Virus genome (UHGV): UHGV-0272092 | DNA length: 37,793 nt | Source of the DNA: a virus | Direction: 5' to 3' (one strand) | Part shown: piece after piece, positions 1,453-35,317 of the stretch | Numbering within the stretch: the stretch's first letter is position 1 | Layout of the letters: the number at the start of each line of letters is the position of its first letter | Translations under genes and position numbers: made by a program | Notes under the pieces: model-generated | Database searches by the model: none | Seen by the model: the letters and a program-made list of their open reading frames with translations, nothing else | What the model was told of the DNA's origin: nothing

Positions 1453-2703
1453 TTATTCCCCCGCCATCCACTTCTCAAACTTCGACGGGGAGAACGGAAT
1501 CAGATCCGTATGCTCCCCGTCAATCCATGAATCAATCATATCGGCCCACTGCTGCAACATGTAGGCGCGCTGTCTGGCGTATTCCGCTTTGTTATATACG
1601 GCGCGCACACCTTTCTGCTCATGTGCCAGAGCCTTTTCAATCCAGTCTGAAGGATAACCAGCCTCATGCAACAACGTACTGGCTGTACGGCGCATATCAT
1701 GTACAGTGAAGTCCTGAATATGCTCACCATCTTCATTTATTATTTTCACCGTTCTGTCGATCAGAGAGTTCAGCGCGGCATTAGATAATGGCTTCCGGAA
1801 ATTGTAACGACCAGGAACCAGATATTCACTTCCACCAGCGCACATCTGCAACCCGACCAATATATCCTGTGCCTGTTTAGGCAGGTAAATAACGTGCGCC
1901 CGGCTTCCCTTCATGCGGTCTGGAGGAATTGTCCATGTCCATTTTTTAAAATCTATTTCATCCCACGTTGCATTGGTGAATTCGCCCTTACGAACCATAG
2001 TGATAAGCACCAGTTTTAAAGCCATTTTCATAGTGCCCATAGCACCAATGGCATCCAGCGTGCGGAAGAACAGGCCAATTTCTTCTGGTGCCAGTGTTCG
2101 CTCTCGTGGTTTAAATATGGCGATAGACGAAGGTTTAATGTCAGCCGCAGGATTAAACAAACCATGACCACGGTCATTGGCGTGACGGTATACGCTACTG
2201 ATGATCTCCCTGGCCTGCACTGCTGTTGCCCGGCCACCGCGTTCGACAATCCGGTCACACAAATCACGAACCATCGATGTGGTAATTTCAGCCATCATTT
2301 TATTGCCAAGAACCGGAAGTATGTCACGGTCGATCACCGCCTGTTTCATTGCGCGGGTACTGTCAGCCAGGATGACGTGTTTCATATAACTGTCGGTATG
2401 TACCGCAAACGTCTCGGCACCACGAATCTTTTTGATACCGTCACGTTTAGCCGCAGCCGGTGACTGGCCTGCTTTAAGCAGCTTCTTTGCAGCAATCAGT
2501 TCTTCTCGCGCTTCTGCCAGGCTGATACCGTCACGCCCATACTGCCCGATTACCAGTGTTTCGCGGCGACCGTTGATACGGTAGTCATAGCGAAACGAGA
2601 CCGTGCCTGACGTAAGCACAGCTACATACAGCCCGTCACGATCGGAGACCTTGTACAGTTTGTCCTGCGGCTTGAGGTTTTTTAATTTTGTATCGGTAAG
2701 CAC
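1453..2703 (-). CDS. int: tyrosine integrase (P4-type, DUF4102-like N-terminus)
   Basis: 416 aa; C-terminal catalytic region HDMRRTASTLLHEAGYPSDWIEKALAH typical of phage integrases. Confidence 0.9.
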   Translation of the reverse strand: MLTDTKLKNLKPQDKLYKVSDRDGLYVAVLTSGTVSFRYDYRINGRRETLVIGQYGRDGISLAEAREELIAAKKLLKAGQSPAAAKRDGIKKIRGAETFAVHTDSYMKHVILADSTRAMKQAVIDRDILPVLGNKMMAEITTSMVRDLCDRIVERGGRATAVQAREIISSVYRHANDRGHGLFNPAADIKPSSIAIFKPRERTLAPEEIGLFFRTLDAIGAMGTMKMALKLVLITMVRKGEFTNATWDEIDFKKWTWTIPPDRMKGSRAHVIYLPKQAQDILVGLQMCAGGSEYLVPGRYNFRKPLSNAALNSLIDRTVKIINEDGEHIQDFTVHDMRRTASTLLHEAGYPSDWIEKALAHEQKGVRAVYNKAEYARQRAYMLQQWADMIDSWIDGEHTDLIPFSPSKFEKWMAGE

Positions 2704-3503: not shown

Positions 3504-4129
3504 ACCGCCAGCACCTTACTGGCAGTGATGTACCGCGCTCGCCGGTCGTCGATGCCGTTCCGGCCACCATTGATAATCAGAGTTACACGTGCAATATCGC
3601 CGGTATACTTCATGCATCCTTTGCTGGCGAAGAACCACGCCGCGCTACGAGCCGCATATTCGTCCTGCGCCAGCAGTTCAGGGCTCTCCAGCAGGTTAAC
3701 CTTCAGACCGTTTCCGCAATCACGATAGTTATTCAAACCGGTAATCTGGATAAGTCCGCGCCCTCGGTAATTCCAGCCATCACCAGGGGCATTGTTCCCC
3801 ATGCGTTTGCTGTATACCAGATTTGCGATCGCGCGCTGGCGCTCAAGTGGCAATGGTGGTTCACCAGCACGGCGCCCCAGTGCATTAGCCTGCCCCTGAG
3901 TGAGACGCCCAGCCCGAACGAAGTTAGCCAGTCCGCTGACACTGTAGTTGAAATTCTCCTGCAACCTGGTGAAGCCCCCAGACTCATGCCCGACTTGAGC
4001 AATAAACATTGCCTGATCTTCTGCTTTGCTGATACCAAACTCTTTCATCGCAGAAGTTATATGCGAGAACCAGCGTGCGGCCAGTGCCTCGCTGATACCA
4101 GCAGCTCGCTGGAATTGTTTAATCTCCAT
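3500..4129 (-). CDS. endolysin, glycoside hydrolase family 19 (chitinase-like lysozyme)
   Basis: Motifs [12 protein letters not shown] and [11 protein letters not shown]; start moved to MEIKQ (ATG at 4129), which abuts the stop of the upstream membrane-protein gene. Track ORF extends to 4294. Confidence 0.85.
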
Positions 4130-4427
4130 GTTTAGACCTCGATACTTTAAAAATTTGAACGACGTTACCGCGCGTTTTAATAACCGCAGCCAGCATGACA
4201 GCGTTGATAATGACCTCAGATAAATCCACAGCCATTGGCGTACGTAACCAGATTGCATAGGCGACTCGAACAGGAATACTGGCCGCAGCAACAATCAGGA
4301 AATAAGCAAGCCATCCTCCCCACCTTCGATGTTGAGAGCCGTTACGCCGGAATGTGACAACGCGAATTGCTATGCCAGTGCAAATAACTGCATTGGTGAT
4401 AAGCAAAAAAAACTCATGCGTTACCAT
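4119..4427 (-). CDS. holin-like small membrane protein (three predicted TM segments, charged C-terminus)
   Basis: Hydrophobic segments [43 protein letters not shown]; sits immediately upstream of the endolysin. Confidence 0.5.
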
Positions 4428-4818
4428 CGTCTTTTCTCCCCGGAATTAACTCGCGTGGATTATCGGAACGGTGATAGAGCCATATACCAATACGCACAGC
4501 GACAATTGCTGACACGAATGCGCCTGCAGAGAAAACAATCCCTTTTTCAAAAGAGTCCTGCGTGATGGTAGGGATCAGGCTGGCTATGCCGATAAGAATT
4601 GATGCTGCTGGTTTGTAAAAGAGAAGGCCGCAAAGAAAGCTGAGCATCGACAGGAGCACCCGGCGACGGATGGGGTACTCTACTGCAGAGGTAACAAAAA
4701 TTACCGCCCCAGCCAAAGCCCCTAAAGCAACCTCCGGAGGGGCACCTGCAATAACCGCAGCAAGAGAACTAAAACTAAGCAACTGATTTAATTGCTCACT
4801 TGTTACTTGAGCAGACAT
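4414..4818 (-). CDS. holin-like membrane protein (3-4 TM segments, charged C-terminal tail)
   Basis: Several hydrophobic helices and C-terminal [19 protein letters not shown]; first gene of the lysis cassette. Confidence 0.5.
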   Translation of the reverse strand: MSAQVTSEQLNQLLSFSSLAAVIAGAPPEVALGALAGAVIFVTSAVEYPIRRRVLLSMLSFLCGLLFYKPAASILIGIASLIPTITQDSFEKGIVFSAGAFVSAIVAVRIGIWLYHRSDNPRELIPGRKDDGNA

Positions 4819-4878
4819 ACTTTCTCCTGTTTACTATCTATAAGCCAGTCAATTATTGATGACTAAACCCGCATAGTA

Positions 4879-4889
4879 AACCATATATG
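4879..4889 (-). promoter_or_regulatory. conserved element AACCATATATG (late-promoter-like), about 60 bp upstream of the lysis cassette
   Basis: One mismatch to AACCACATATG at 8309 and 24915, each at a similar distance upstream of a minus-strand operon start. Confidence 0.4.
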
Positions 4890-5099
4890 AATCATTATTG
4901 TTCCATATCATATATCTCAATAAAAGTACTAATGATTTTACAGAACGAGCCAGCAGAGTGGGGGCAGTTGTACAGGAACCATAGACTTAATTTTGTATTT
5001 AATAATGCTATGGTGTAATAAACCTGAACATGTATTTAAAATACGTACTGATTCATGATAGAATTCAAAGATAACTTTTCACAAACTCCGTTTTTGATA

Positions 5100-5126
5100 C
5101 CCGCAAAATATTGCGGGCTTTTTTTT
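5100..5126 (+). terminator. plus-strand intrinsic-terminator-like hairpin overlapping the tailspike stop codon
   Basis: CCCGCAA-AATA-TTGCGGG followed by C and eight T. No annotated plus-strand gene lies upstream. Confidence 0.5.
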
Positions 5127-8100
5127 AACGTTCTTCCAGAGACTGAATCCGCTCTTTTATCTTATCCATTTCTCTGCGCTGCCATGCTGCCTCGATATAG
5201 AATAAGAGATCAGGTCTGACCCCCCATCTAGATCCTGCTGGCGTTATTTCAACGCGCTCAATGATGTCTTCCATTACCATCACTGGATTATCATCCTCAT
5301 CAACAATGATGCTCCCGTCATTATCAGTCAGCGGCATTTCCCTTTGGCCAGTAATGACGTCATCATATACTGCGGGATAATCGTCATAGCAAAGAAAGGC
5401 ATAGCGGCATGTTGTGCTTTCTTCTTCCATGAGTCCGTGAGAAATAAGAACATCACGAAGTTGCTGCGCGATTACACCATGATGTATCCTCGCCCCTTCT
5501 TCCCCCTTTATAGCGACAGCGTTCAGCCATTTATAAGCGATATACCTGACGTCACCCCAGGCATCCAGCAATGCTTCGTCAGGAGAGACCGGCTCTGTCT
5601 TTAATGTTCCGTCACTGGTAACCACAGGATTGGAGCCAAGATAAACTGTCGAGAACCTGTTTCCCGGACCACCAAGAGCATTTACATTATCAAGATAAGG
5701 TTTAACATCTCCGTTCTCAAAAAGATGTTCGAGTGCGTTATATACCGCGCGACGTGGAGTACTGCTTCCGGAACCATGCAACGTTATCATTGCACCATCT
5801 GCTGAAGACGTTATTTCACCGCCGCTAACGATTAATCTCTGAGCGGTAACATCATCAGACGGTACTTTCTTCGCAATAATGGCGTAATTACCCTCAAGTT
5901 TGACTTCCGCGCGAACTTGTCCTGATGTACCTGCATGGACAGTCAGTGACTGGACGGCAACATCATCTGTGAAATCAACGGGTACAGGAACCGTCCTCAC
6001 GCCTGACGTCGACATAAAAGTAGGAAGCGTTCTGTTAGGAGTGGCTCCGTAGACAAAATCCCTTGAAACAAATTCTTCCTGTTTAATTTTCACCCTGAAA
6101 CAATACAAATCAGCCGGGTGACCATCGTGAACATAAGGATATTTTCTGTTGTTATCCCCTATGCTCCATGGGTTTAGAAAGTCTTCCCCACCGAAAATGT
6201 AGTACAGCCAGTTGTCTTTGATACAAACTGAACCAACACCAACTGCAGAGTTAACTATTCCGCCCTGATAAATCTGATCAGTAACATTAACCCACTCTAC
6301 ATTATCCAGACTCCACTCATTGACGTTAACTCTGGTCATAAATGTTCTTGGATAATTTCCTGCATAACGGTTATCAGGTTCTCCTCCTTCCCACTCACCA
6401 AATGCGCGCTCACTGCCAAAAATAATCAGCTCATCGCCAACTTTGGCAAAAGGAAGGTTTGAGTGATGAACATTATTTGGGAAGCGAAGAGAATTCCATG
6501 ATGTACCTAAATCAGAGCTTCTGTGCAATGAACTACCGGGTTGAGTACTTAATGTCCCCCTGGTCGTCAGATACAGAATGCCATCATAATATTTTACACA
6601 TGGCTCAGATGCATTCGCCTCATATTCTGCAGGTATGCGTCTGCGAACAAAGCTACCAGGAGAACCGAAAGCATCAGAGAAATAGAGTATCCCAAGCTCG
6701 CGTGGACCAATATCACCATTATGGTAGCCAACAGCAAAACTGTTATCGCTAATCGTCGCAAAACTGTGAATCTCAGTAACAGGAGTGCTTCCGTCAACAA
6801 AAGAAGGAATAGTTCCAAGACTGGTTTTTCTCCATGGTGACGAGTGAAATGATGTACCAAAACTCCAGTATCTACCCTCGTTATTCTGATCCACATCCTG
6901 GGTATTTTGCGTCGTAACTGTAAAAGTATTTTTATCAATAACAGTAGTCACCGTCATATTCCCGGTAACACCTGTAACACCAGAGTTTGAGAAGTTGACA
7001 AAATCACCAGCAAATAATCCGTGATCAGTAATGCGAATATAAGCGACTTGCTGATTTGCTGCTTTCGTTATACCACCATAAGCGCGAAGGCTGCGACTCA
7101 TTGGGCGATCCCACAACTCTGCAACCTGCAGTTTATTTCCGCTCACGGTCCGCGTCTCAATTACAGCAAAAAGGCGATTTCTGACAACCCCCATACTCAT
7201 GCAGTGATAGTTAACTGTGGGATAGTTTTCATGTAAATCTGTAAGCCATTCCGGCGTTGTCCAGGTCTTCCCGTCATCTCCTGAGCGAACCCATGCAACA
7301 TGGAGGTTATTTACACCATGGCGGTCTCCAGCCATAAAAGGCGCATAGATGACATTGTCATATACAAACGTTTTATCCTGCGTCCAGGCGTTGTACCACG
7401 GTGTATCTGTAATTTTAAATAACTCTCCCTGGATAAAATCTTCAGAAGCATAAAAAAGAGGCTGGCCCGGTATTCTCTCAAATAAAAAACGAGCATTTTT
7501 AAATCGACTGACATCCGGAAGAGTTGATACTTTAAAAGTAAGCCCTAATCCGTCAATTTTATAACCTGGAGATGAGGCTTCAAGGCACGCGCTTATTGCA
7601 GTGGAATCGTCATTTATACCATCACCAACAGCTCCAAAATCTTTGGGGCTAATAGCATCACGCATTTTATCCTGGAACGTTCGGTACACAGCCCCAGAAC
7701 CATACTGAATAAACCAACCAAAACCACCAACAACCCCGGCGATTGCAGCATCGACATAATTACGCATTGAGCGATTATTTACAGCGTCCTGCTCAAATGA
7801 TGGATCTGCAAGGTTAGAAATTTTGTTTTGCTTTGCATCGTAATATTTTGCAAGCAAAGATGGTTTCATCAATGCACGTCTGAACCACCCAAAACATTGC
7901 TGGATCAGCATCGTCAGGTAGTCAAAGGCATCTTCATGCACTTCGGGGAAAAATTTTCCCTGATTGCGAAGGTCTGTCTCCTGCACTACATCAAGCACAC
8001 GATCTATCGTAATTCGCCATCCAGTAGCAAGCGGAGACGGAAGAACCACAGAACCGCCACTATAAGTGCCCGCCCCAGTTACCGTATAACCGGTATCCAG

Positions 8101-8244
8101 AACCAATTCTGTTACGTTTCCGTTCAGGTCAGACACCTGAACAACCAGGTCTGATTTTCTGAAAATTCGAAAAGTATACGGAAACGATGTCGTAACGCCG
8201 TTACCGGTGTATTCGTTGTGGTCAACTTCGGTTGAGACCGTCAT
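5125..8244 (-). CDS. tailspike / tail fibre protein (1039 aa), probable polysaccharide depolymerase with C-terminal chaperone-like domain
   Basis: Size, position as last virion gene, and a C-terminal segment (GVIAQQLRDVL...) reminiscent of intramolecular chaperone domains of tailspikes. Confidence 0.7.
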   Translation of the reverse strand: MTVSTEVDHNEYTGNGVTTSFPYTFRIFRKSDLVVQVSDLNGNVTELVLDTGYTVTGAGTYSGGSVVLPSPLATGWRITIDRVLDVVQETDLRNQGKFFPEVHEDAFDYLTMLIQQCFGWFRRALMKPSLLAKYYDAKQNKISNLADPSFEQDAVNNRSMRNYVDAAIAGVVGGFGWFIQYGSGAVYRTFQDKMRDAISPKDFGAVGDGINDDSTAISACLEASSPGYKIDGLGLTFKVSTLPDVSRFKNARFLFERIPGQPLFYASEDFIQGELFKITDTPWYNAWTQDKTFVYDNVIYAPFMAGDRHGVNNLHVAWVRSGDDGKTWTTPEWLTDLHENYPTVNYHCMSMGVVRNRLFAVIETRTVSGNKLQVAELWDRPMSRSLRAYGGITKAANQQVAYIRITDHGLFAGDFVNFSNSGVTGVTGNMTVTTVIDKNTFTVTTQNTQDVDQNNEGRYWSFGTSFHSSPWRKTSLGTIPSFVDGSTPVTEIHSFATISDNSFAVGYHNGDIGPRELGILYFSDAFGSPGSFVRRRIPAEYEANASEPCVKYYDGILYLTTRGTLSTQPGSSLHRSSDLGTSWNSLRFPNNVHHSNLPFAKVGDELIIFGSERAFGEWEGGEPDNRYAGNYPRTFMTRVNVNEWSLDNVEWVNVTDQIYQGGIVNSAVGVGSVCIKDNWLYYIFGGEDFLNPWSIGDNNRKYPYVHDGHPADLYCFRVKIKQEEFVSRDFVYGATPNRTLPTFMSTSGVRTVPVPVDFTDDVAVQSLTVHAGTSGQVRAEVKLEGNYAIIAKKVPSDDVTAQRLIVSGGEITSSADGAMITLHGSGSSTPRRAVYNALEHLFENGDVKPYLDNVNALGGPGNRFSTVYLGSNPVVTSDGTLKTEPVSPDEALLDAWGDVRYIAYKWLNAVAIKGEEGARIHHGVIAQQLRDVLISHGLMEEESTTCRYAFLCYDDYPAVYDDVITGQREMPLTDNDGSIIVDEDDNPVMVMEDIIERVEITPAGSRWGVRPDLLFYIEAAWQRREMDKIKERIQSLEER

Positions 8245-8308
8245 GTTAAATCTCCAGATAGTCGCAGCACCCGTTGCGCCGCATATCTGGTTATTCTATT
8301 ACCTGGAA

Positions 8309-8319
8309 AACCACATATG
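8309..8319 (-). promoter_or_regulatory. conserved element AACCACATATG upstream of the tailspike gene
   Basis: Identical 11-mer at 24915-24925; preceded by ATTACC-N5 in both copies. Confidence 0.45.
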
Positions 8320-8348
8320 GATAGAAAGGATGTAAATACGAATAGATA

Positions 8349-8363
8349 TTACCTTTCAGGTAA
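8349..8363. promoter_or_regulatory. operator-like palindrome TTACCTTTCAGGTAA
   Basis: Perfect 15-bp palindrome, identical to the copy at 24967-24981. Confidence 0.55.
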
Positions 8364-8400
8364 TTTGCAAAACGTGCTGGATAGCAAACAAATTATTTGA

Positions 8401-8420
8401 TACTGTATAAATATACAGTT
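8401..8420. promoter_or_regulatory. LexA (SOS) box TACTGTATAAATATACAGTT
   Basis: CTGT-N8-ACAG with AT-rich centre, 18 of 20 matches to consensus TACTGTATATATATACAGTA. It occupies the spacer between a possible -35 TTGATA (8397-8402) and a weak -10. Confidence 0.7.
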
Positions 8421-8439
8421 ATTGCATGGAGAAGATAAG

Positions 8440-8697
8440 ATGCAGCAGTATCACTATCCACTGGAAGACGGATTTACCGAAAGGATTCACACGCCGGGAG
8501 GCGTCAGGTCACTGGTGGAGGGATCGCACTTGATGAAATTACTCCGGGATCTCGATAAGGATGGATTTAATGTCGATGGCCCACTTGCCGAACTGACTGC
8601 ACTGATTAACTACGTCACCAGCTCACAGATGTCTATGCAGGATCTGCAAACACATCTCGACTATTGTGCCGAACAATTACGAAAACAAACCCGGTAA
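8440..8697 (+). CDS. small LexA-controlled protein (85 aa), candidate antirepressor
   Basis: ATG 8440 with RBS GGAG 8 nt upstream. Plus-strand gene embedded between minus-strand tail genes, directly downstream of the LexA box. Confidence 0.55.
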   Translation: MQQYHYPLEDGFTERIHTPGGVRSLVEGSHLMKLLRDLDKDGFNVDGPLAELTALINYVTSSQMSMQDLQTHLDYCAEQLRKQTR

Positions 8698-8704
8698 ATT
8701 TAAA

Positions 8705-8733
8705 GGCCGCGAAAGCGGCCTGTGACATGTCAC
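8705..8733 (+). promoter_or_regulatory. GNRA-loop hairpin GGCCGC-GAAA-GCGGCC followed by palindrome GTGACATGTCAC (8722-8733)
   Basis: Read from sequence immediately after the stop of the 8440-8697 gene; no T-run follows. Confidence 0.5.
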
Positions 8734-8890
8734 GCTCACGTTATGACAAGCCTATGTACCCTGCTACACCAGATAATATCATAATAACTGCAACAGCAAA
8801 TTCGCCATCGTCAATGATACATTTACGGTTCATAACGCCAAGTGCAACAAGCGCAAACACAACAAGAATAAAAGCAATCATTTCTCATCC

Positions 8891-11365
8891 TTATTGCGGA
8901 GTGACATCCTGTGGTCGCCACCAGTATGTCTGGTTAAACTCTTTCTTCGAACGTTGCTCCATTTTACGCAAATAACCTGGTGAAAAATACTCCTGCATCT
9001 GGTTAAAGATCATGTGATCGAGAGCCGCCTTCAAGTACCAGAGATTCGCACCTGGCATCAGACCTTTCCCCAGCTTAACCAGATCACCACCAGTCTGCTC
9101 ACTCTTCCCTTCCACAGCATTTAACGGTATGCCCTGAGCAATCTTCACTACGTCATCAACCAGACCAGCTACCGGGCCAAGCATCGACGCCAGCGCGCCG
9201 CTTCCGTACCTAGTGTGATCTGACAATAAAAAGTCACCGTAAAGGCCAAGACCACCACCTTTCAGTAGAGCACCAAGCCAAAATTTAGCAGCATCTTCTC
9301 CTGTCATCTCGCGAGGATTACGACCAGACGCAAGGTCGTTAAGTTGCTGCGACAAAGCGCCAAGAATGGTCGTACTGGCAATAAACGTCGCAATATATGC
9401 CGCACGCCCACCAGCAGACGGCATACCCATAGCGCGTGACCAGTGACGCATAACCACCGAGATAGGGAACGATTTAAACAGGAAAACACTTCTCGTTAAT
9501 TCACCTTTCCATGTTCCACGCTGAATACCAGAACCGGTTATCAGTTGCTCACGTGCTCCCGGTGTAATAACAGCCATATCAACTTCTTCAGTTACGGCAC
9601 CGAGCAGTTTACGCATTGCCTCAAATTTCACGCGTTCAGGCTCACCAAGATGTTTAACTGCTGAATCAGGGATACGCATAATGCTTTCCGGTGTCAGCAT
9701 CGTATTATTACCGTTCCCCCAGTCCTCCTGTTTCGCCAGCTTCCATACGCTCCAGTCTGTGTCAGTAATCCCTTTGCTTTTCAGGATACGAAAATCAGAG
9801 TCATCGAGGCTACGAAGGTCTGGTGTACGTGACACTACTTCTCCCAGGCTTCCCATCATGGTTACGCCATAGGCGCGCTTGTGCGCATCTGACCATGCTG
9901 TAAGCCCACTGGCACGCATTACCGCCGTTGCCGCCCAACGAGACACTGACGGCCCCATATTATCCATCGCCCAGCGGTTAACGCTGCCAAGTAGAGATTC
10001 CATCGCCAGACCAGCGCGGCGCGCCCGCGCAAGTTCTGTACGGTTCGTTGGGTCCATAGCTTCAAGCTGGTTGCGGAATAACTGGTTCATTGGAAGGTTG
10101 GTAACCTTCGCAGACAGATACATGGTTCCAAGATCAGAGAACGATGACAGCAACGCGGATCCGAGTCTGCTGGCAACCAGCCAGTTGCGGATATTGTCAG
10201 ACCATCGCGCGATGTGCGGATTCGCTACAGGCTGTGTCTTTCCGGAAATAAAGTTGTACAGATTCTCTGTGTTGTTCGCCAGCCGCTCGACTTTACCGGT
10301 TTTACTCGGGTTAGCTGTTGCCGTTTCTGCCTTCACCTGATCAAGAAGAGAGCGGAAAACATGATCGGGGTTTGGGCCATATGTTTCCACCAGTGCAATA
10401 TCTTTACTGATACCTTCCAGGTGACCGACCATGATTTCCCATAGAGAGCGATCGCCATAAAGTTGCTGATATTGCAGATAGGAATCTGCATCTTTGAAAT
10501 GTATCTGTCGTGATGCATTACCACGGTTAGCACGTGCGCCGGAAATTCGCATTCCGGTATCAGTAAGCTTATTCAGCCCACCAGTAGCGATCGTGTTATA
10601 AGCCTCTCCAAGAAATGAAGACAACTCGGCATCGTTCATCAGTTGTCCATCGGCTCGGATATAATATTTGCGATCCAGCTTACCTATAACATCGCTAACC
10701 CACTTATCCTTTGATACTGCCCCAACCTTTTCCATAGAATGATGTTGAGGGATCCCCCAGTTTTCGAGATAGCCAATGTCCCCACCAGCATCATTAAACC
10801 GGCGGCGCAGCAGCTCTGTAACTTCTCTCCACGCCTTAGCACCGTTTCTTGCTTTAGCATTGCCAGTATTTTGCCCCCGCATTTCATATACCAGGTCACG
10901 TACGCCCGCTTCATCTTCAAACAGACCAAAAAAGCGAGGATCAACTGCTTCGAATGCCTCCTGCAATTGACTCAATGCATAATCACGGGTGGCTTTTGTT
11001 CTGGATTCAACAGAGAGGAAATTAGATTTACCGTCTGCATTAAAAGCTATAGTACGGTTAAGAGCGCCAAGTTTCCCATCAGCCCCTTGATAGCTATTGA
11101 TAAATTTATCCAATCTCTGACGCGCGGCTATAGTGAGAGCCACACGACGTTTCTTTAATGCCGCTTCTCGCTGTAATTCTTCAGATGCCAATTGTGCTGC
11201 TCGATATAGCCGCTCTGATTCGGAAAGTTGTCTCCACGACATCGGGTCATCACGAGCAATGGAGCGCATATTTCGATAAATGCGGTCTTCAATGTTCTGT
11301 ATTTCTCGCGCCGTTAACGTGCGCTGCGCCGCCTGCTGGACCGCTTGTATACATTCCTGTCTCAT
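8891..11365 (-). CDS. internal virion / ejection protein (824 aa)
   Basis: Large protein in the block between tail tube and tailspike, matching the T7 gp15/gp16 position. Confidence 0.5.
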   Translation of the reverse strand: MRQECIQAVQQAAQRTLTAREIQNIEDRIYRNMRSIARDDPMSWRQLSESERLYRAAQLASEELQREAALKKRRVALTIAARQRLDKFINSYQGADGKLGALNRTIAFNADGKSNFLSVESRTKATRDYALSQLQEAFEAVDPRFFGLFEDEAGVRDLVYEMRGQNTGNAKARNGAKAWREVTELLRRRFNDAGGDIGYLENWGIPQHHSMEKVGAVSKDKWVSDVIGKLDRKYYIRADGQLMNDAELSSFLGEAYNTIATGGLNKLTDTGMRISGARANRGNASRQIHFKDADSYLQYQQLYGDRSLWEIMVGHLEGISKDIALVETYGPNPDHVFRSLLDQVKAETATANPSKTGKVERLANNTENLYNFISGKTQPVANPHIARWSDNIRNWLVASRLGSALLSSFSDLGTMYLSAKVTNLPMNQLFRNQLEAMDPTNRTELARARRAGLAMESLLGSVNRWAMDNMGPSVSRWAATAVMRASGLTAWSDAHKRAYGVTMMGSLGEVVSRTPDLRSLDDSDFRILKSKGITDTDWSVWKLAKQEDWGNGNNTMLTPESIMRIPDSAVKHLGEPERVKFEAMRKLLGAVTEEVDMAVITPGAREQLITGSGIQRGTWKGELTRSVFLFKSFPISVVMRHWSRAMGMPSAGGRAAYIATFIASTTILGALSQQLNDLASGRNPREMTGEDAAKFWLGALLKGGGLGLYGDFLLSDHTRYGSGALASMLGPVAGLVDDVVKIAQGIPLNAVEGKSEQTGGDLVKLGKGLMPGANLWYLKAALDHMIFNQMQEYFSPGYLRKMEQRSKKEFNQTYWWRPQDVTPQ

Positions 11366-22979: not shown

Positions 22980-24655
22980 TGTGATTGCCCACCCTGACCA
23001 CTAACTGCATTCGCCATAGCTGACAAAACACTCGGATCCGAAGTTTTAGCTTCGCTTAGCGTCTTGGCACCCTGTGCCGCCGCCATCCCCATCGCCATCA
23101 TTTGTTGCTGCTGTTGTTGCTGTGCCCGTTGCTGGCGAGCCTGCTCAACCTGTTCCTGCGGAACAATGACGGTTGGAGACACTCCGGACATATCAGCGAA
23201 TGCATCGATCGCCTGATCAACGTTGAGTTTGTCGAGAGCTTCTGGTTTCGCTTGCGCAAGTTGACCAATGAAGTTAACCGTGGACGCCAGACTGGACAGG
23301 CCGATAGACTTCTGCGCCTGAGCCATGACGGAAATGTATTCGACCTTCAGGGGCATGCCTTCCATCGCGTCAGGCGGTGTCGGCAGCATGTTTTTACGCA
23401 CCATCATCGAGAAAGCGCGGTCAATGAGAGGATTAAGACATTCGTCGTTCAGACGCTCCAGAACCGGCCCCAACATCAGAAGTTTTTCTTCTTTCATTTC
23501 GATCACCGCTTCAACAGGCATCGAGCGGGTATTGATGTTCTGCAACATCATGAACAGATCGACAAAGTAGGCGCTGTTAATGATTTGACGGGTGTCCTGA
23601 ATGTCTGCCACCAAATCTGCTGTACTGGGGTTAACCAGATAAGCAGGCCTGAAACCATCCTGACCAGTAATCTGATCGATATACGTGATGTCGCCAGGAA
23701 GAAGGGAGGCACGCTGATTCTTGAGGGAAGTCGGAGCAACCATCGGCGGATTGGTGGCTTTATCAATCAACTGCGACTTGCGCTTCTGGAGAAGCTGCAA
23801 TGCCTTAACAGGTCCAAGCGCCAGCATACCCGGGCATGATGATCCATAAACATCTTCGCCGTTAACTTCCCAGCGCGGAGCCATAATTGGAAACTCATCG
23901 AATCCGGACTCACGCAACAACTTGTCGTTATCGCCACCAACCTCGTAATAAACCGATTTGAATGGCTTGTTCTTGCTATCCAGCTTCGATGTATCGCGGT
24001 CAATGTTCGGGTAAACCGAATGCATCACTTCAATCCACTTCTCGTAGGTGCCGCTTTCCCACATGCTTTTTACGGATTCGCTGACGTTATTTAGCCCGAA
24101 CTCCTGAACAAGCTGACGAACAGTCATAGAGAACTTGCGAAAACAGGTGTCCACACTGCCACGAGGTGAGTTAGCCAGGTAGTAACTGCCTATCGGGAAT
24201 GGCATTGTGCGAATGATGTCCTCGTCATCCTCCAGCACCGCCATTGCACCAGTGCTGTATGTGCCGAGGCTTCCGTATAACTGCGGAAGAGACTGGTAGA
24301 GATTCGACTTATTGAACATATCGTTCATGCGGTTCTGAACTGCCTCAAGCCACAACTTAACAGGGCCATAGTCCATCATTTCAGGATCTGGCGTAGCCAG
24401 GCGAAACCACGGACGGGCGGGGCTTGTTATGCCTGACATCATGCCGCTGGCAAGAGTGCGCGCCGCCATAGTCCCGGTCGAATCAATAATGCGTGTATTG
24501 CGTCGATCGTTACGGTTAACCTCAGAAGTCAGAAAGCGGGAACCACGCGGGTTGATGTAATCACTCAACTCGCGCCAGTGCGGCTCGAACGACTGACGCT
24601 CGCTTTCAAGTTGTGCGAACTGTTTGTTCAATCGCTCTTTAGTTGTTTCCGCCAT
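22976..24655 (-). CDS. portal protein (559 aa)
   Basis: Size, position after terminase, RBS GGAG 9 nt upstream of ATG 24655. Confidence 0.75.
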   Translation of the reverse strand: MAETTKERLNKQFAQLESERQSFEPHWRELSDYINPRGSRFLTSEVNRNDRRNTRIIDSTGTMAARTLASGMMSGITSPARPWFRLATPDPEMMDYGPVKLWLEAVQNRMNDMFNKSNLYQSLPQLYGSLGTYSTGAMAVLEDDEDIIRTMPFPIGSYYLANSPRGSVDTCFRKFSMTVRQLVQEFGLNNVSESVKSMWESGTYEKWIEVMHSVYPNIDRDTSKLDSKNKPFKSVYYEVGGDNDKLLRESGFDEFPIMAPRWEVNGEDVYGSSCPGMLALGPVKALQLLQKRKSQLIDKATNPPMVAPTSLKNQRASLLPGDITYIDQITGQDGFRPAYLVNPSTADLVADIQDTRQIINSAYFVDLFMMLQNINTRSMPVEAVIEMKEEKLLMLGPVLERLNDECLNPLIDRAFSMMVRKNMLPTPPDAMEGMPLKVEYISVMAQAQKSIGLSSLASTVNFIGQLAQAKPEALDKLNVDQAIDAFADMSGVSPTVIVPQEQVEQARQQRAQQQQQQQMMAMGMAAAQGAKTLSEAKTSDPSVLSAMANAVSGQGGQSQ

Positions 24656-24669
24656 TTCAATGACTCCGG

Positions 24670-24876
24670 TTACTGACCAAGCAGCGTTTTACCGCTGGTA
24701 TTAGCGGTTGATGTGTCGCCCTGAGAACCGGTAAGCAGCGTAGAACTACGACCAGCAGCAGCGCGACGGCGACGAGTTTCTTCGTCGCGGGCATCAACAA
24801 CGGCGGCATCCTGCTCCTGTGGTGCTGCCTGAACTTCTGGTGTTGCAGGCACTGATGGTGAGCTACCCATGCACAT
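24670..24876 (-). CDS. small protein upstream of portal (68 aa)
   Basis: Start context GGAGTCATTGATATG is near-identical to the portal start context GGAGTCATTGAAATG. Confidence 0.45.
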   Translation of the reverse strand: MCMGSSPSVPATPEVQAAPQEQDAAVVDARDEETRRRRAAAGRSSTLLTGSQGDTSTANTSGKTLLGQ

Positions 24877-24914
24877 ATCAATGACTCCGTACGCAATTAA
24901 ATTATTACCAATTT

Positions 24915-24925
24915 AACCACATATG
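24915..24925 (-). promoter_or_regulatory. conserved element AACCACATATG upstream of the head operon
   Basis: Identical to 8309-8319; preceded by ATTACC-N5. Confidence 0.45.
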
Positions 24926-24966
24926 ATTTATTTATCGTAGGTAGTTGACATTTAACGCACAAATTA

Positions 24967-24981
24967 TTACCTTTCAGGTAA
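24967..24981. promoter_or_regulatory. operator-like palindrome TTACCTTTCAGGTAA
   Basis: Identical to the copy at 8349-8363. Confidence 0.55.
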
Positions 24982-25303
24982 CCAAAGAGTTCATTCCGGT
25001 TACTAACCTGACTGGCTTGTCGTTAAATTGAACAGGTGGAGTGAGCTTTTATTTTGAGCAGTACGGCGTATGGCACATGCGCCGATAGCGGTCTGGATAC
25101 GTTTAAGGGGCACCCTCCCTTGCTCGGGCAAACGAACCAGGTAGCCGGAATGTGCAAGTCGAGCGGTTTTATTCCGCGCACGGGGATTCACCATCCCGGC
25201 GATTCGGTGTGACGCCTCGGAAGAGACGAGGGTACAACGATGAGAGCATTTATGGAGCCGCGACAAAGTGTGGCGCCTTAACAGGCTAAGTGCTCTCAGC
25301 GTT

Positions 25304-25380
25304 GTGGCATTAGCTCAGTTGGACAGAGCAACCGCCTTCTAAGCGGTTGGTCGCAGGTTCGAATCCTGCATGCCACGCCA
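25304..25380 (+). tRNA. tRNA-Arg (anticodon UCU), 77 nt including CCA
   Basis: Hand-folded cloverleaf: acceptor GTGGCAT/ATGCCAC, D-stem GCTC/GAGC, anticodon stem ACCGC/GCGGT with loop CTTCTAA, T-stem GCAGG/CCTGC with loop TTCGAAT, discriminator G, CCA. Confidence 0.85.
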
Positions 25381-25423
25381 GAATCACGCCTAAGGACCGT
25401 GATGCCAGAAGTTCCAGGTGCTT

Positions 25424-25916: not shown

Positions 25917-25928
25917 CGTGACATGTCA
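25917..25928. promoter_or_regulatory. 12-bp palindrome GTGACATGTCAC (copy 2 of 3)
   Basis: Exact repeat of 8722-8733 and 28183-28194. Confidence 0.5.
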
Positions 25929-26003
25929 CAAACAGACAGCCTATGAGCTGGCTTTGTTTTATCCTCACCAGAGGATATCAACGACATTATCCCCACCAGC
26001 GGA

Positions 26004-27479: not shown

Positions 27480-28072
27480 TGATTACCATCCTGACGTTCT
27501 TTGAGTCGCTTCCTGGCTGCTGCTATGCGATCAGCAATTGTCACATTCACATTAACATCCAGACGTTCTTTGAACGCGTTGACATCAACATGCTTACCAA
27601 TCAGCTCAAGGTTCTTCACCTTGTCAGGCCATTTAATTTTTTTGAGGATTGTCTCTATCGAATCCTCGTTCATGTTCATGATGGTCGATGACAGATCAAA
27701 GCCACTAAGCGTAGTGCGCCAGATTTTCGGCCACTCACGGATTGGTTTAAGGCTCCCATCGTCGTTGAGGATGTCGATCACGTCCATCTGGTCGATCTCC
27801 ACCAGGCGCATGAGAACGTAATCAGCACTGACGCGCATTCGTTTGTTGCGCTCCTCCATCAACTCGGCAATCCGTTTTTGAATGCGTTCATCGCGCATCA
27901 TGACACTGGCTTTAACTGCCGCTGTATTTGGGGAGAATCCTGCGTTAATCGCTGCCTGAGTCTGGTTTTCAGGCGTTTTGATGTATGACTGGCAATAAGC
28001 CTCCTGCATTGCTGTTAGTGGCTTAAATTGCGTTGATTTGCGTTTATAGGTTTTAGGTTCAGCAGGCATCAT
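27476..28072 (-). CDS. terminase small subunit
   Basis: Position; start moved to MMPAEPK (ATG 28072, RBS GGTGG) because the upstream extension to 28150 contains a terminator hairpin and direct repeats. Confidence 0.65.
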   Translation of the reverse strand: MMPAEPKTYKRKSTQFKPLTAMQEAYCQSYIKTPENQTQAAINAGFSPNTAAVKASVMMRDERIQKRIAELMEERNKRMRVSADYVLMRLVEIDQMDVIDILNDDGSLKPIREWPKIWRTTLSGFDLSSTIMNMNEDSIETILKKIKWPDKVKNLELIGKHVDVNAFKERLDVNVNVTIADRIAAARKRLKERQDGNQ

Positions 28073-28081
28073 AACCACCGT

Positions 28082-28111
28082 GGTAATAGTTACCGTTGTG
28101 GTAATAGTACC
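28082..28111 (-). repeat. tandem direct repeat GGTAATAGT(T)ACC x2 directly upstream of the small terminase start
   Basis: GGTAATAGTTACC (28082-28094) and GGTAATAGTACC (28100-28111). Confidence 0.5.
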
Positions 28112-28182: not shown

Positions 28183-28194
28183 GTGACATGTCAC
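28183..28194. promoter_or_regulatory. 12-bp palindrome GTGACATGTCAC (copy 3 of 3), overlapping the stop of the 28191-28538 gene
   Basis: Exact repeat. Confidence 0.5.
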
Positions 28195-28538
28195 ACTATT
28201 AATTTCGTTTCATGCCAGCCTTTAGTCACCCAGCATTGCGAGTCACCATTACACGGGCATGAATTAACTGGAACTCTCTCGCCGCACTTACCGCAACATT
28301 TTCTGCTGATCGATTTTATACGCCCGCGCACGCGTGCATCATCCTGGCGGATCAGTAACGCGATGTACTCGGCCATTTCATAGGGATCGCGACCAGGGCG
28401 CCGGGCGGCGCAGTTCCGCGCCAGCATTTCCTGCTCCTGCTTATCCAGCACCAGTTCAATTTTGCGCTCACCGGCGGCGGACTGCCGAGCGCGCTGCGCG
28501 GCTTTGCGTTCTGCGGGGGATTTAGCCACGAATCGCAC
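28191..28538 (-). CDS. Cys-rich small protein (about 111-115 aa), candidate late-gene regulator
   Basis: C-terminal Cys cluster CCGKCG...CPCNGDSQC; last gene before the terminase-proximal terminator. Track start is GTG; a second GTG with RBS GGAG is at 28526. Confidence 0.45.
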   Translation of the reverse strand: MRFVAKSPAERKAAQRARQSAAGERKIELVLDKQEQEMLARNCAARRPGRDPYEMAEYIALLIRQDDARVRGRIKSISRKCCGKCGERVPVNSCPCNGDSQCWVTKGWHETKLIV

Positions 28539-31812: not shown

Positions 31813-32157
31813 TCAGAACTCTTCGATGTTCCAGCCACCACCTGCTTTCTTTGGTTTAACCGTTACCCCGATGATTCGGAACGGATACTGATCTGCGGCG
31901 ACTTTGGTTTTCACCCTGGCGTCGTCGGTCCAGAAACCTTTCACTTCGTGCAGTTCCATCTCTCCGGTGGCGAGCATCACAGCGAAATCGGGCGTATAGA
32001 ACGTGTTGTCAGCTAACCGCAGCTTGATACCCTCGAATCGATACCAGGCGATTTCCCCTGCACGTTTACGCTGCTCAAGGTGCTGGCAATACGCAGATTC
32101 TGTTTTGTTCATCTGGCCTGTTTTGAGTCGACCAAGAGCCTGTATCTGTTTTCTCAT
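31813..32157 (-). CDS. DUF1064-family protein (putative nuclease-fold protein)
   Basis: 114 aa; resemblance to DUF1064 proteins found next to phage replication genes. Start codon lies 3 nt from an operator-like palindrome. Confidence 0.45.
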   Translation of the reverse strand: MRKQIQALGRLKTGQMNKTESAYCQHLEQRKRAGEIAWYRFEGIKLRLADNTFYTPDFAVMLATGEMELHEVKGFWTDDARVKTKVAADQYPFRIIGVTVKPKKAGGGWNIEEF

Positions 32158-32160
32158 GAT

Positions 32161-32237
32161 TTACCTCTAAGGTAATTGAAAACCATATAAGACACGAAAT
32201 CAATAGAGTTTAGAATATTTTGTTACCTTGTAGGTAA
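32161..32237. promoter_or_regulatory. pair of operator-like palindromes TTACCTCTAAGGTAA (32161-32175) and TTACCTTGTAGGTAA (32223-32237)
   Basis: Two perfect-armed palindromes 62 bp apart between P and the DUF1064 gene. Confidence 0.55.
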
Positions 32238-32274
32238 TTGTTGAGGCGTAAAAAAATGCGCTATCGCGCTGGTA

Positions 32275-34046: not shown

Positions 34047-34124
34047 TTTTTCCGCCCCTTTTTGTTATTGATATTGACTATTTTGCACAATTGGAAAATT
34101 TGATCAACCAGATTTGGTTTTTTA

Positions 34125-34150: not shown

Positions 34151-34176
34151 AAAAGACCGCCGGATGGCGGTCTACA
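34151..34176 (-). terminator. tR1-like terminator downstream of the Cro-like gene
   Basis: Stem AGACCGCC / GGCGGTCT with a 4-nt loop; on the minus strand followed by TTTCATATCT. Confidence 0.5.
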
Positions 34177-34194: not shown

Positions 34195-34425
34195 TCATGA
34201 GTAGAAGAAGTATGCCAGTTCTGCTTTTGAGCGCAGCCATTGTCTTGTTTTACAGGCTTTAAAAAGCCCATTCATCAATACTTTACCTGGCATTTTGCGC
34301 TTGCCTGTTAAGTGAGTCTGGATATAGTGACTCGTCGTTCCGGCTTCCTGTGCGAAGGCTTCACGCTCATCCGGAGTAAGTGCAAGCCAGTGCTTTTTGA
34401 AATCGAAATGTCCGTTATCGCTCAT
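34195..34425 (-). CDS. Cro/CII-like HTH regulator (76 aa)
   Basis: First gene of the minus-strand early operon next to the operator cluster; helix-turn-helix-like segment AQEAGTTSHYIQTHLTG. Confidence 0.5.
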   Translation of the reverse strand: MSDNGHFDFKKHWLALTPDEREAFAQEAGTTSHYIQTHLTGKRKMPGKVLMNGLFKACKTRQWLRSKAELAYFFYS

Positions 34426-34579: not shown

Positions 34580-35164
34580 ATGAAAAGTATCCAGGACGTC
34601 CGCAGGCAAAATCTCAACGACTTGATCGACCGTGAATTCAATGGTGTTCAGACGCGGATGGCAGAAAAACTTGGAACTCAGGCAAATCTGGTAAACCGCT
34701 GGGCTCTTGGCAAGAAGGTTATCGGCGACCAGGTTGCACGAAAAATTGAAGCTGCCGCCAATAAACCCCGTAACTGGCTTGATATTGATCGTTCGCTTTC
34801 TCAGGAGGGTTTTCAGCCTGTCGGCCCGAGCGATATAGGTCAGCTGGCGGCTCACAACCTGGAACGCTGGATGAGCGAAAGCCGCGACCTTTCAACACAG
34901 GGAAAACTTCACCGCGCATCCGGCGTCGCCCAGGTGACAATCAGCCGCCTGTTAAACAATGAGGTCAGCGTTTCCATTTCCACCCTGGAGAATGTTGCAT
35001 CCGCATTCGGGCGTCACGGATATGAACTACTGATTCACCCGCACGACCCTGCGACTATCAACTATGACCGCTCACGCTACGCATTGTTACCCGAAACCGA
35101 GAAAGCAAAGATCGAAAGTTACATTGAATTTGTCATCAACCAGAACGAAAAAAGCAAACAATAA
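34580..35164 (+). CDS. prophage repressor, tandem HTH domains, no S24 peptidase domain
   Basis: Two XRE-type HTH-like segments (TRMAEKLGTQANLVNRWALGKK and ASGVAQVTISRLLNNEVSVS); no Ala-Gly / Ser-Lys autocleavage signature. Confidence 0.65.
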   Translation: MKSIQDVRRQNLNDLIDREFNGVQTRMAEKLGTQANLVNRWALGKKVIGDQVARKIEAAANKPRNWLDIDRSLSQEGFQPVGPSDIGQLAAHNLERWMSESRDLSTQGKLHRASGVAQVTISRLLNNEVSVSISTLENVASAFGRHGYELLIHPHDPATINYDRSRYALLPETEKAKIESYIEFVINQNEKSKQ

Positions 35165-35210: not shown

Positions 35211-35221
35211 TGCCAGATAGA

Positions 35222-35298
35222 TTACCTTACGGGTAATTTTTTTAACTCATATCTATTGACACCAAACCAAATAAGCATAATTATTACCCCAACGGTAA
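35222..35298 (+). promoter_or_regulatory. OL-like region: operators TTACCTTACGGGTAA (35222-35236) and TTACCCCAACGGTAA (35284-35298) flanking a sigma70-like promoter (-35 TTGACA 35256-35261)
   Basis: TTGACA followed 14-16 nt later by CATAAT/ATAATT; the second operator overlaps the start region. Confidence 0.6.
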
Positions 35299-35317
35299 CA
35301 GACCGAGGTAACAAGTT

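Follow-up and report, generated by a model that had tools for sequence, protein, structure and literature searches.

UHGV-0272092, the 37.8-kb stretch of viral DNA analysed here (the window), represents a temperate podophage of the genus Uetakevirus (epsilon15/phiV10 group) and is 99.6-99.7% identical to Escherichia phage vB_EcoP_ZX5 in the two stretches compared (4000-9000 and 24400-25400). Most of its genes are on the minus strand, including the lysis, tailspike and head operons, whose upstream regions share the 11-mer AACCAYATATG. Judged by sequence comparison, this 11-mer is a genuine, strongly conserved cis-regulatory sequence of the three promoter regions. It belongs to a 14-bp pseudo-palindrome, named here the N6 site for the 6 bp between its arms, which looks like a second operator class of the phage immunity circuit and not like the box of a late activator or sigma factor. 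This would be a newly recognised class within the known repressor/antirepressor system of these phages. The operator reading is preferred because the window shows six copies, including early and middle promoters, because the site is palindromic, because its spacing is locked to the repressor operators, and because its position within the promoters varies.

Exact matches to the 11-mer are three in the window, all on the plus strand (4879-4889, 8309-8319 and 24915-24925), as the initial annotation had described; in dinucleotide-preserving shuffles the mean is 0.01 matches, and three matches are reached in none of 100. Read on the coding (minus) strand, the general form is CATATRTGGTT: the lysis copy is CATATATGGTT and the tailspike and head copies are both CATATGTGGTT. 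The gap to the start codon is 60 nt for the lysis operon (first ATG at 4818), 64 nt for the tailspike gene (ATG at 8244) and 38 nt for the head operon (ATG at 24876), which begins with a gene encoding a 68-aa gp3-like protein, followed by the portal gene; all three start on the minus strand, and the measured 38-64 nt are close to the 40-120 bp originally given. The continuation of the tailspike and head copies into N5-GGTAATA, also described before, is seen at both. Each of these upstream regions is preceded by a terminator or by convergent or opposite-strand genes and must therefore hold a promoter: the terminator at 5100-5117 precedes the lysis region, a convergent ant-like gene precedes the tailspike region, and opposite-strand genes and a tRNA lie before the head region. 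Three degenerate copies at early and middle promoters, the near-palindromy of the element, operators of the form ATTACC-N5-GGTAAT that precede the tailspike and head copies by 28-40 nt, and the atypical character of the copy at 4879 had been overlooked.

The 11-mer corresponds to the last base (C) of a weaker left arm, an AT-rich centre and the GGTT arm of the 14-bp site, whose consensus is A-W-N-C N6 GGTT; the degenerate consensus across operons is C-N-T-A-T-N-N-G-G-T-T. The window contains six N6 sites, in both orientations. The lysis site (4879-4892, minus strand, ATTCATATATGGTT) reads ATTC-ATATAT-GGTT and has a weak left arm, the tailspike site (8309-8322, minus strand, ATCCATATGTGGTT) reads ATCC-ATATGT-GGTT, and the head site, before gp3 and the portal gene (24915-24928, minus strand, AATCATATGTGGTT), reads AATC-ATATGT-GGTT. 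The middle-promoter site (32181-32194, minus strand, TGTCTTATATGGTT) reads TGTC-TTATAT-GGTT and is upstream of a DUF1064/resolvase-like gene (31813-32157). The post-cro site (34106-34119, AACCAAATCTGGTT) shows perfect arms, AACC-AAATCT-GGTT, and is just past the terminator of the cro-like gene, and the site in the spacer of the early-left promoter, PL (35265-35278, minus strand, ATGCTTATTTGGTT; plus strand, AACCAAATAAGCAT), reads ATGC-TTATTT-GGTT. A perfect site, AACCATATATGGTT, is found in relatives, where the full site is also visible in the lysis promoters as AACC-N6-GGTT palindromes or near-palindromes, such as AAACCATATATGGTTT, TAACCATATATGGTT and TATCCGTAAATGGTT. Either arm can be the perfect one, as seen in the middle promoter of phage Tyrion (AACCGTATATGGAT) and at 34106-34119 of the window. 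Two inverted 4-bp arms around a 6-bp AT-rich centre, the geometry of phage 434 operators, are shown by AACCATATATGGTT and AACCAAATCTGGTT. The listed sites have centres with 5-6 A/T in a six-genome site listing that itself selected for an AT-rich centre, and the centres are AT-rich also in sets not picked by centre composition, namely the lysis promoters of relatives and the head alignment. The site does not have the 17-bp form ATTACC-N5-GGTAAT of the canonical operator of the prophage repressor, Rep, since its arms are 6 bp apart and read A-W-N-C/GGTT; they share the ACC/GGT core with the Rep half-sites, and GGTTA is a half-site in one bona fide Rep operator, at terS.

The epsilon15 record (AY150271.2) shows seven "repressor" protein_bind features, all ATTACC-N5-GGTAAT (N5 operators), two of them upstream of gp3 and of the tailspike gene. 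In the window, N5 operators are found between the ant-like and tailspike genes (8348-8364, ATTACCTGAAAGGTAAT), upstream of the head promoter (24966-24982, GTTACCTGAAAGGTAAT) and next to the post-cro N6 site (GCACCTTAAGGGTAAT), and pairs of them flank the N6 site of the middle promoter (32160-32176 and 32222-32238) and that of PL (35221-35237 and 35283-35299). Distances were taken in six genomes from the N6 centre to the nearest ACC-N5-GGT operator centres, and they fall only at 19.5/20.5, 40.5-43.5 and 52.5 bp, save one second neighbour at 86.5 bp; these values correspond to about two, four and five helical turns (10.5 bp per turn). The distance is 52.5 bp at the head promoter, 40.5 bp at the tailspike promoter, 43.5 bp at the lysis promoters of relatives, 19.5 and 42.5 bp at PL and, in relatives, at the middle promoter, and 19.5-20.5 bp at the post-cro site (19.5 bp in the window). 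The 52.5 bp of the head promoter recur in each of 16 distinct sequences, one of them from a Pantoea prophage with unrelated intervening DNA, and the gap between the tailspike operator and the motif is 28 nt across very divergent sequences. The seven promoter classes are all within 1.5 bp of a whole turn, with a joint chance of about 1e-3 to 1e-4 if the seven classes are taken as independent and each as having a chance of about 0.3-0.4. A single N5 operator and a single N6 site are paired within 70 bp at 18 places across the six genomes, for the most part at head, tailspike, lysis and post-cro promoters, and the rep-cro switch region of these genomes contains three N5 operators and no N6 site. 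The element is locked to canonical repressor operators at approximately whole-turn distances. A 62-bp register from operator to pseudo-operator holds at the head promoter only, and centre-to-centre distances were used instead.

The position of the N6 site within the promoters differs among operons. PL shows TTGACA at 35256-61 and AATTAT at 35279-84, separated by 17 nt (10 of 12 matches to the sigma70 consensus), and the N6 site, on the opposite strand, occupies spacer positions 4-17, that is, -26 to -13. The middle promoter, read by eye, has TTGATT, a spacer of 17-18 nt and TTCAAT/TCAATT, with the N6 site in the spacer as at PL; this pair is not listed by the sigma70 scan, and its -10 hexamer is without A at position 2. 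In the lysis promoters a -10-like hexamer abuts the site upstream (GGTAATTAT or TATGAT in relatives, AATGAT in the window), and the site is approximately at the predicted start site, because the leader hairpin begins inside GGTT in the window and in relatives. The head and tailspike sites are located roughly at -34 to -21, 8-10 nt upstream of the best predicted -10. In the tailspike promoter the N6 site is followed after 5 nt by GGTAATAGAAT (8293-8303, minus strand), a GGTAAT repressor half-site fused to the -10-like TAGAAT/TAATAG; the five bases between them vary among relatives and the GGTAATAGAAT block is constant. In the head promoter it is followed, also after 5 nt, by GGTAATAAT (24901-24909, minus strand), a repressor half-site fused to the -10-like AATAAT/TAATAA. 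The initial annotation had stated that no obvious sigma70 -35/-10 pair is present; this stands for the tailspike and head regions, where the scan lists no pair and the bases at -35 to -30 match TTGACA by eye in at most 3 of 6 positions, but not for the lysis region, whose candidates include TTGAGA-18-AATGAT (4920-4891). This pair stops 1 nt short of the 11-mer, and its final two bases open the 14-bp site. Comparison by eye with a -35 hexamer, an extended -10, sigma54, sigma32, sigmaS and ECF promoters, with IHF, CRP, Fis, DnaA-box, PhoP, OmpR and marbox sites, and with a full N5 Rep operator in another register shows none that fits all copies.

The same six classes of N6 site recur in epsilon15, SPC32H, Tyrion, BUCT554 and BUCT711. 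In these five annotated relatives the motif or a close variant is downstream of an operator before the head and tailspike operons, and likewise before the lysis operon wherever this operon has its own upstream region. With the window included, the tailspike site is upstream of the tailspike gene in six of six annotated genomes and the post-cro site is conserved in all six. The initial annotation had proposed searching related phage genomes for the element upstream of late operons; it is present there, and at early and middle promoters too. A further set of 20 prophage loci from different species, chosen by similarity of the portal protein regardless of the motif, shows the N6 element before gp3 in 11 of 11 Enterobacteriaceae/Erwiniaceae loci, and the head site is found in 16 of 16 distinct sequences chosen independently of the motif. 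In the alignment of these 16 sequences TAT-N-TGGTT and the operator are invariant and GGTAATAAT is near-invariant, with variable DNA between them. About 100 tailspike and head contexts in viral contigs, retrieved by a pattern requiring the motif and GGTAAT, so that only the flanks are informative, show free variation both in the five bases that separate the motif from GGTAAT and in the DNA from the operator to the motif. Two viral-contig matches, in L030 and L117, are outside the family and are due to chance; in L117 the match is within a structural gene, in antisense orientation. The relatives do not count as independent, and the conservation counts amount to about seven site classes, not dozens of events. 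Relatives from Providencia and Morganella have the octamer TTGTTTAT in place of the head-promoter sequence, and the octamer is also repeated in the Providencia immunity region: in the Providencia prophage L137 the rep-cro intergenic region (1206-1400) contains TTGTTTAT five times, with three copies forming a 10-bp tandem, and the octamer is also in the head promoter, where the Enterobacteriaceae phages carry the N6 site.

The repressor is encoded on the plus strand at 34580-35164 as a protein of 194 aa, homologous to SPC32H Rep and matching structure 5d50 (E = 3.5e-42). It shows two regions like a helix-turn-helix (HTH), one at about residues 21-61 and a Pfam HTH_3 at 106-147 (E = 1.2e-9), which resembles an XRE regulator; the latter region is in the part of the protein termed the dimerisation domain in the literature. 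The repressor and antirepressor of epsilon15/SPC32H-like phages are already solved structurally. SPC32H Rep is described as a protein of three domains, for DNA binding (N-terminal), dimerisation (middle) and tetramerisation (C-terminal, of the looping type), and its two domain pairs are separated by about 100 A (PMC9986798). The protein binds DNA in tetrameric form, and the antirepressor Ant disassembles the tetramer (PMC9638917; PMC9986798); the mode of repression by Rep is termed poorly characterised (PMC9986798).

We give about an even chance to the proposal that the N6 site is an operator coupled to tetrameric Rep and supplies the core-promoter part of a bipartite operator. Rep, a tetramer with two separated DNA-binding heads, would be anchored on the strong N5 palindrome, and its second head would bind the weaker N6 site, which faces the same side of the helix; alternatively, Rep would cooperate there with a related HTH dimer. 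The protein bound would accordingly be Rep or a Rep-like HTH protein and the effect repression, as occupancy of the N6 site, which is always inside the spacer, in the -35 to -20 region or at the start site, would exclude RNA polymerase. Rep could thereby shut every lytic promoter in the lysogen, including those of the head, tailspike and lysis operons, and the LexA-controlled antirepressor, by disassembling Rep, would release all of them jointly. The bipartite operator would account for the lone operators located 40-50 bp upstream of late promoters, for the presence of the element at early promoters and for its palindromic form. Operators commonly vary in their position within the polymerase footprint, which activator or sigma boxes rarely do.

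Several points weigh against the bipartite operator. The 6-bp spacing and the AACC/GGTT arm differ from TTACC-N5-GGTAA, and the known DNA-binding pair of Rep may not accept them. The TAT centre is more conserved than the centres of N5 operators, which could point to a different reader or to an overlap with promoter function, and loops of 42-52 bp are tight and need bending. The copy at 4879 has no partner operator; it is the least typical in the window, with a weak left arm, no GGTAAT and no operator within 90 bp. The promoters without -35 hexamer of the head and tailspike genes may need something to activate them, and all promoter hexamers except those of PL are predictions from weak consensus matches, the middle-promoter -10 having failed the scan rule. 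Possible readers of the N6 site, as far as sequence can indicate, are Rep, a Cro-like HTH protein or another regulator. It is unlikely, in our estimate, that Rep is dual-specific, with its N-terminal Cro-like HTH pairs reading N5 and its middle XRE/HTH_3 pairs reading N6, or else that N6 is the target of an unrecognised lytic or late master regulator of Uetakevirus; with a dual-specific Rep, one tetramer would clamp the strong upstream operator and the core-promoter site at distances set by its own architecture.

A Cro-like HTH protein of 76 aa is encoded on the minus strand at 34195-34425 by the first gene of the rightward early operon (phrog_35, transcriptional repressor), followed by the terminator at 34154-34173. 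Its similarity to the N-terminal HTH of Rep is weak (27% over 41 aa, E = 0.004). This protein, the earliest product after induction, would be the likeliest reader if the N6 site were the operator of a second dedicated regulator, its dimer damping PL and the middle promoter and modulating the late promoters, perhaps with the opposite sign. The 14-bp site with 4-bp arms has the geometry established for small HTH dimers of the Cro/cI type, such as that of phage 434; the weak homology to Rep makes related but distinct half-sites plausible, and the AACC/GGTT arm with N6 spacing is consistently unlike the TTACC-N5-GGTAA of Rep. Whole-turn phasing also fits cooperation or competition with Rep. However, the rep-cro switch region, where a Cro protein normally acts, is without an N6 site in six of six genomes, and a Cro would have little reason to repress the head, tailspike and lysis promoters in lytic growth, so that this second-regulator operator is a doubtful alternative. 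The proposal of the initial annotation, a recognition box for a phage-encoded late activator, sigma-like or appropriating factor at promoters without -35 hexamer, with the gp49-like or PerC-like protein as candidates, is quite unlikely. What remains of it is a conserved cis-regulatory element in promoter-bearing regions, of which those of the head and tailspike genes have the -10-like GGTAATAAT and GGTAATAGAAT, respectively, with the motif at about -34 to -21 and no -35 hexamer. Highly conserved and shared by all Enterobacterales relatives, the gp49-like protein, a member of phrog_536, takes the place that Q has in lambdoid phages; the window also encodes a PerC-family activator. A box of this kind would be confined to the late class and would keep a fixed distance and orientation to the -10 hexamer or the start site. 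The element is instead also found in the PL spacer, in the middle promoter and past the post-cro terminator, including early and middle promoters with good -35 hexamers; it is palindromic and used in both orientations; it is located in the spacer, the -35 region or at the start site, the last because the lysis leader hairpin begins inside it; and its distance to the best -10 is 0, 7, 8 or 10 nt, or it is downstream of the -10, with the fixed spacing being that to the repressor operators.

The two remaining explanations do without a phage protein as reader. As an RNA-level element, the transcribed motif would be the 5' arm of leader structures acting on stability, RNase III processing or translation. 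In agreement with this, the lysis leader hairpins begin inside GGTT, and 19 sequences retain their pairing, one pair being compensatory; a sequence located 16 nt downstream of the tailspike motif, AACCAGATATG, can base-pair with it; and the RNase III site of the epsilon15 record starts inside the lysis copy. We regard this explanation as very unlikely, given that the pairing partners are different at each operon, that the head operon forms a weak hairpin (z = -1.86), that it leaves unexplained the copies past cro, in the middle-promoter spacer and in the PL spacer (opposite strand), and that a strict spacing to DNA operators would be unexpected. The least probable reading is that a host protein conserved in Enterobacterales, either nucleoid-associated or another HTH regulator, has been recruited to the phage promoters. 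The site is kept across genera, including Escherichia, Salmonella, Klebsiella, Enterobacter, Citrobacter, Kluyvera, Pantoea and Erwinia, among others, but its position tracks the operators of the phage itself, Providencia and Morganella relatives carry TTGTTTAT in its place, and no match was recognised by eye with the consensus sequences of IHF, CRP, Fis, the DnaA box, sigma54, sigma32, PhoP or the marbox.

The window encodes several uncharacterised candidate regulators. The gp49-like protein (112-115 aa) is encoded on the minus strand at 28191-28538 by the last gene before terS, and phrog_536 is described as "transcriptional regulator". It has no relative in Pfam, NCBIfam or PDB, and its homologues are all named "hypothetical"; the closest ones are 78-99% identical and belong to many Enterobacterales genera, and distant ones include N15 gp46 and phiKO2 gp44. 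By eye, its N-terminal part is like a ribbon-helix-helix and its C-terminus is Cys-rich. The presence of this protein does not correlate cleanly with the motif, as it is also found in Morganellaceae relatives with a partly different promoter motif. The PerC-like protein, of the PerC family of activators, is at 315-614, and an AlpA-like protein is also among the candidate regulators of the window. For none of these three proteins do Pfam or PDB matches lead to a known late activator, and no sigma-like protein is found among the nine small candidate regulator open reading frames examined.

The N6 site differs in several respects from the elements it resembles. The operators bound by Rep (gp38) in epsilon15-like phages are in the same genomes and regions, have the ACC/GGT core and an AT-rich centre, and are located where polymerase binds, and the N6 sites, like them, are in or next to promoters of lytic operons. 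The N6 site differs from them in the 6-bp spacing of its arms, the AACC/GGTT sequence, the usually degenerate state of one arm and a more conserved centre; it is also absent from the rep-cro switch and unannotated in the epsilon15 record, which contains only N5 operators, IHF sites and RNase III sites. Phages 434 and lambda provide a second comparison: 434 operators are 14-bp ACAA-N6-TTGT sites, and repressors of this type bind cooperatively at whole-turn separations. The N6 system shares with them the 14-bp site with 4-bp arms, the combination of strong and weak sites and the spacings near whole turns, which are the signature of cooperative or looped binding, but the sequence and the proteins are others, the N5 and N6 classes coexist, and the repressor tetramer is removed by an antirepressor and not by cleavage. 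Late boxes include the Lpa-dependent promoters of P1, in which the element replaces the -35 hexamer, the MotA box of T4 and the Ogr/B sites of P2/186. They resemble the N6 element as short conserved elements upstream of a -10-like hexamer at promoters without -35 hexamer that serve structural and lysis operons; however, they belong to one temporal class and keep a fixed distance to the -10, whereas the N6 element is also at early promoters, in both orientations and in varying positions. To our knowledge, no late regulator is described for epsilon15-like phages. The motif strings retrieve only unrelated primers from the searchable literature, the primary Rep papers being outside that search, and the published description of ZX5 offers no detail on promoters.

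E. coli, Salmonella, Klebsiella and their relatives commonly harbour prophages like epsilon15, phiV10 and SPC32H, which carry serotype-conversion genes and capsule-specific tailspike genes. A second class of sites phased with the known operators offers a testable model in which a single tetramer would silence the early and late operons together. It also counsels caution, as a motif repeated upstream of phage operons is not automatically a late-promoter box.

In the lysis leader a consensus stem of 14 pairs is kept in the 19 sequences, with several wobble changes besides the compensatory one; in the window the stem GUUUACUAU/AUAGUAAAC (z = -3.15) starts inside GGTT, and the leader (4825-4881) has another sequence with the same closing stem, GUUUA...UAAAC. 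In relatives the hairpin, annotated as an RNase III site in epsilon15, is between the promoter and the first lysis gene, reaches about 24 bp and -35 to -39 kcal/mol (for example, 24755-24817 in the epsilon15 locus, L003), and encloses a strong Shine-Dalgarno sequence and an ATG, a possible mini-ORF (small open reading frame). The 5' leader of the tailspike gene (8245-8300, minus strand) forms a hairpin of -22.4 kcal/mol (z = -6.46), whose 3' arm, UAUCUGG, overlaps the Shine-Dalgarno GGAG, and transitions in relatives preserve the pairing. The upstream motif is a possible alternative partner of its 5' arm, AACCAGAUAUG. This leader also contains a weak inverted copy of the N6 site (8279-8292, plus strand, CCGCATATCTGGTT), which is part of the same 5' arm.

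Other features concern the surroundings of these sites. The body of the tailspike gene (5154-7546) is 99.4-99.5% identical to that of the K1 endosialidase of the P22-like phage CUS-3, which marks a mosaic joint, and the interval between the tailspike and lysis genes is without the serotype-conversion genes and the operator that epsilon15 has there. The ant-like gene (8422-8697, plus strand) shows an upstream sequence like a LexA box, CTGTATAAATATACAG, at 8403-8418, and matches the LexA-controlled antirepressor of SPC32H. The tRNA between the terminase and head operons is a tRNA-Arg(TCT) at 25304-25380 on the plus strand. At terS, two tandem N5 operators (28071-28105), with centres 18 bp apart, are against the start codon and overlap the ribosome-binding site; a terminator precedes them, and the N6 site is absent here. 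Just upstream of the integrase gene (1453-2703, minus strand), at 2745-2761, is an isolated operator-like palindrome, TATACCTTTAAGGTAAT, which is found at the same place in five of five relatives. Finally, the perfect 12-bp palindrome GTGACATGTCAC occurs three times in the window (8722-8733, 25918-25929 and 28183-28194), with about 0.005 copies expected (length over 4^12). Its copies are at operon ends, after the tail genes, after terL and over the stop codon of the gp49-like gene before terS, and two of the three adjoin a rho-independent terminator. GTGACATGTCAC is a second orphan cis-element, possibly a protein site tied to termination or read-through. The five annotated relatives have it in the same three positions, and of 16 prophage loci from further genera, Proteus, Providencia and Morganella among them, 14 have it at those of the positions that the locus spans.

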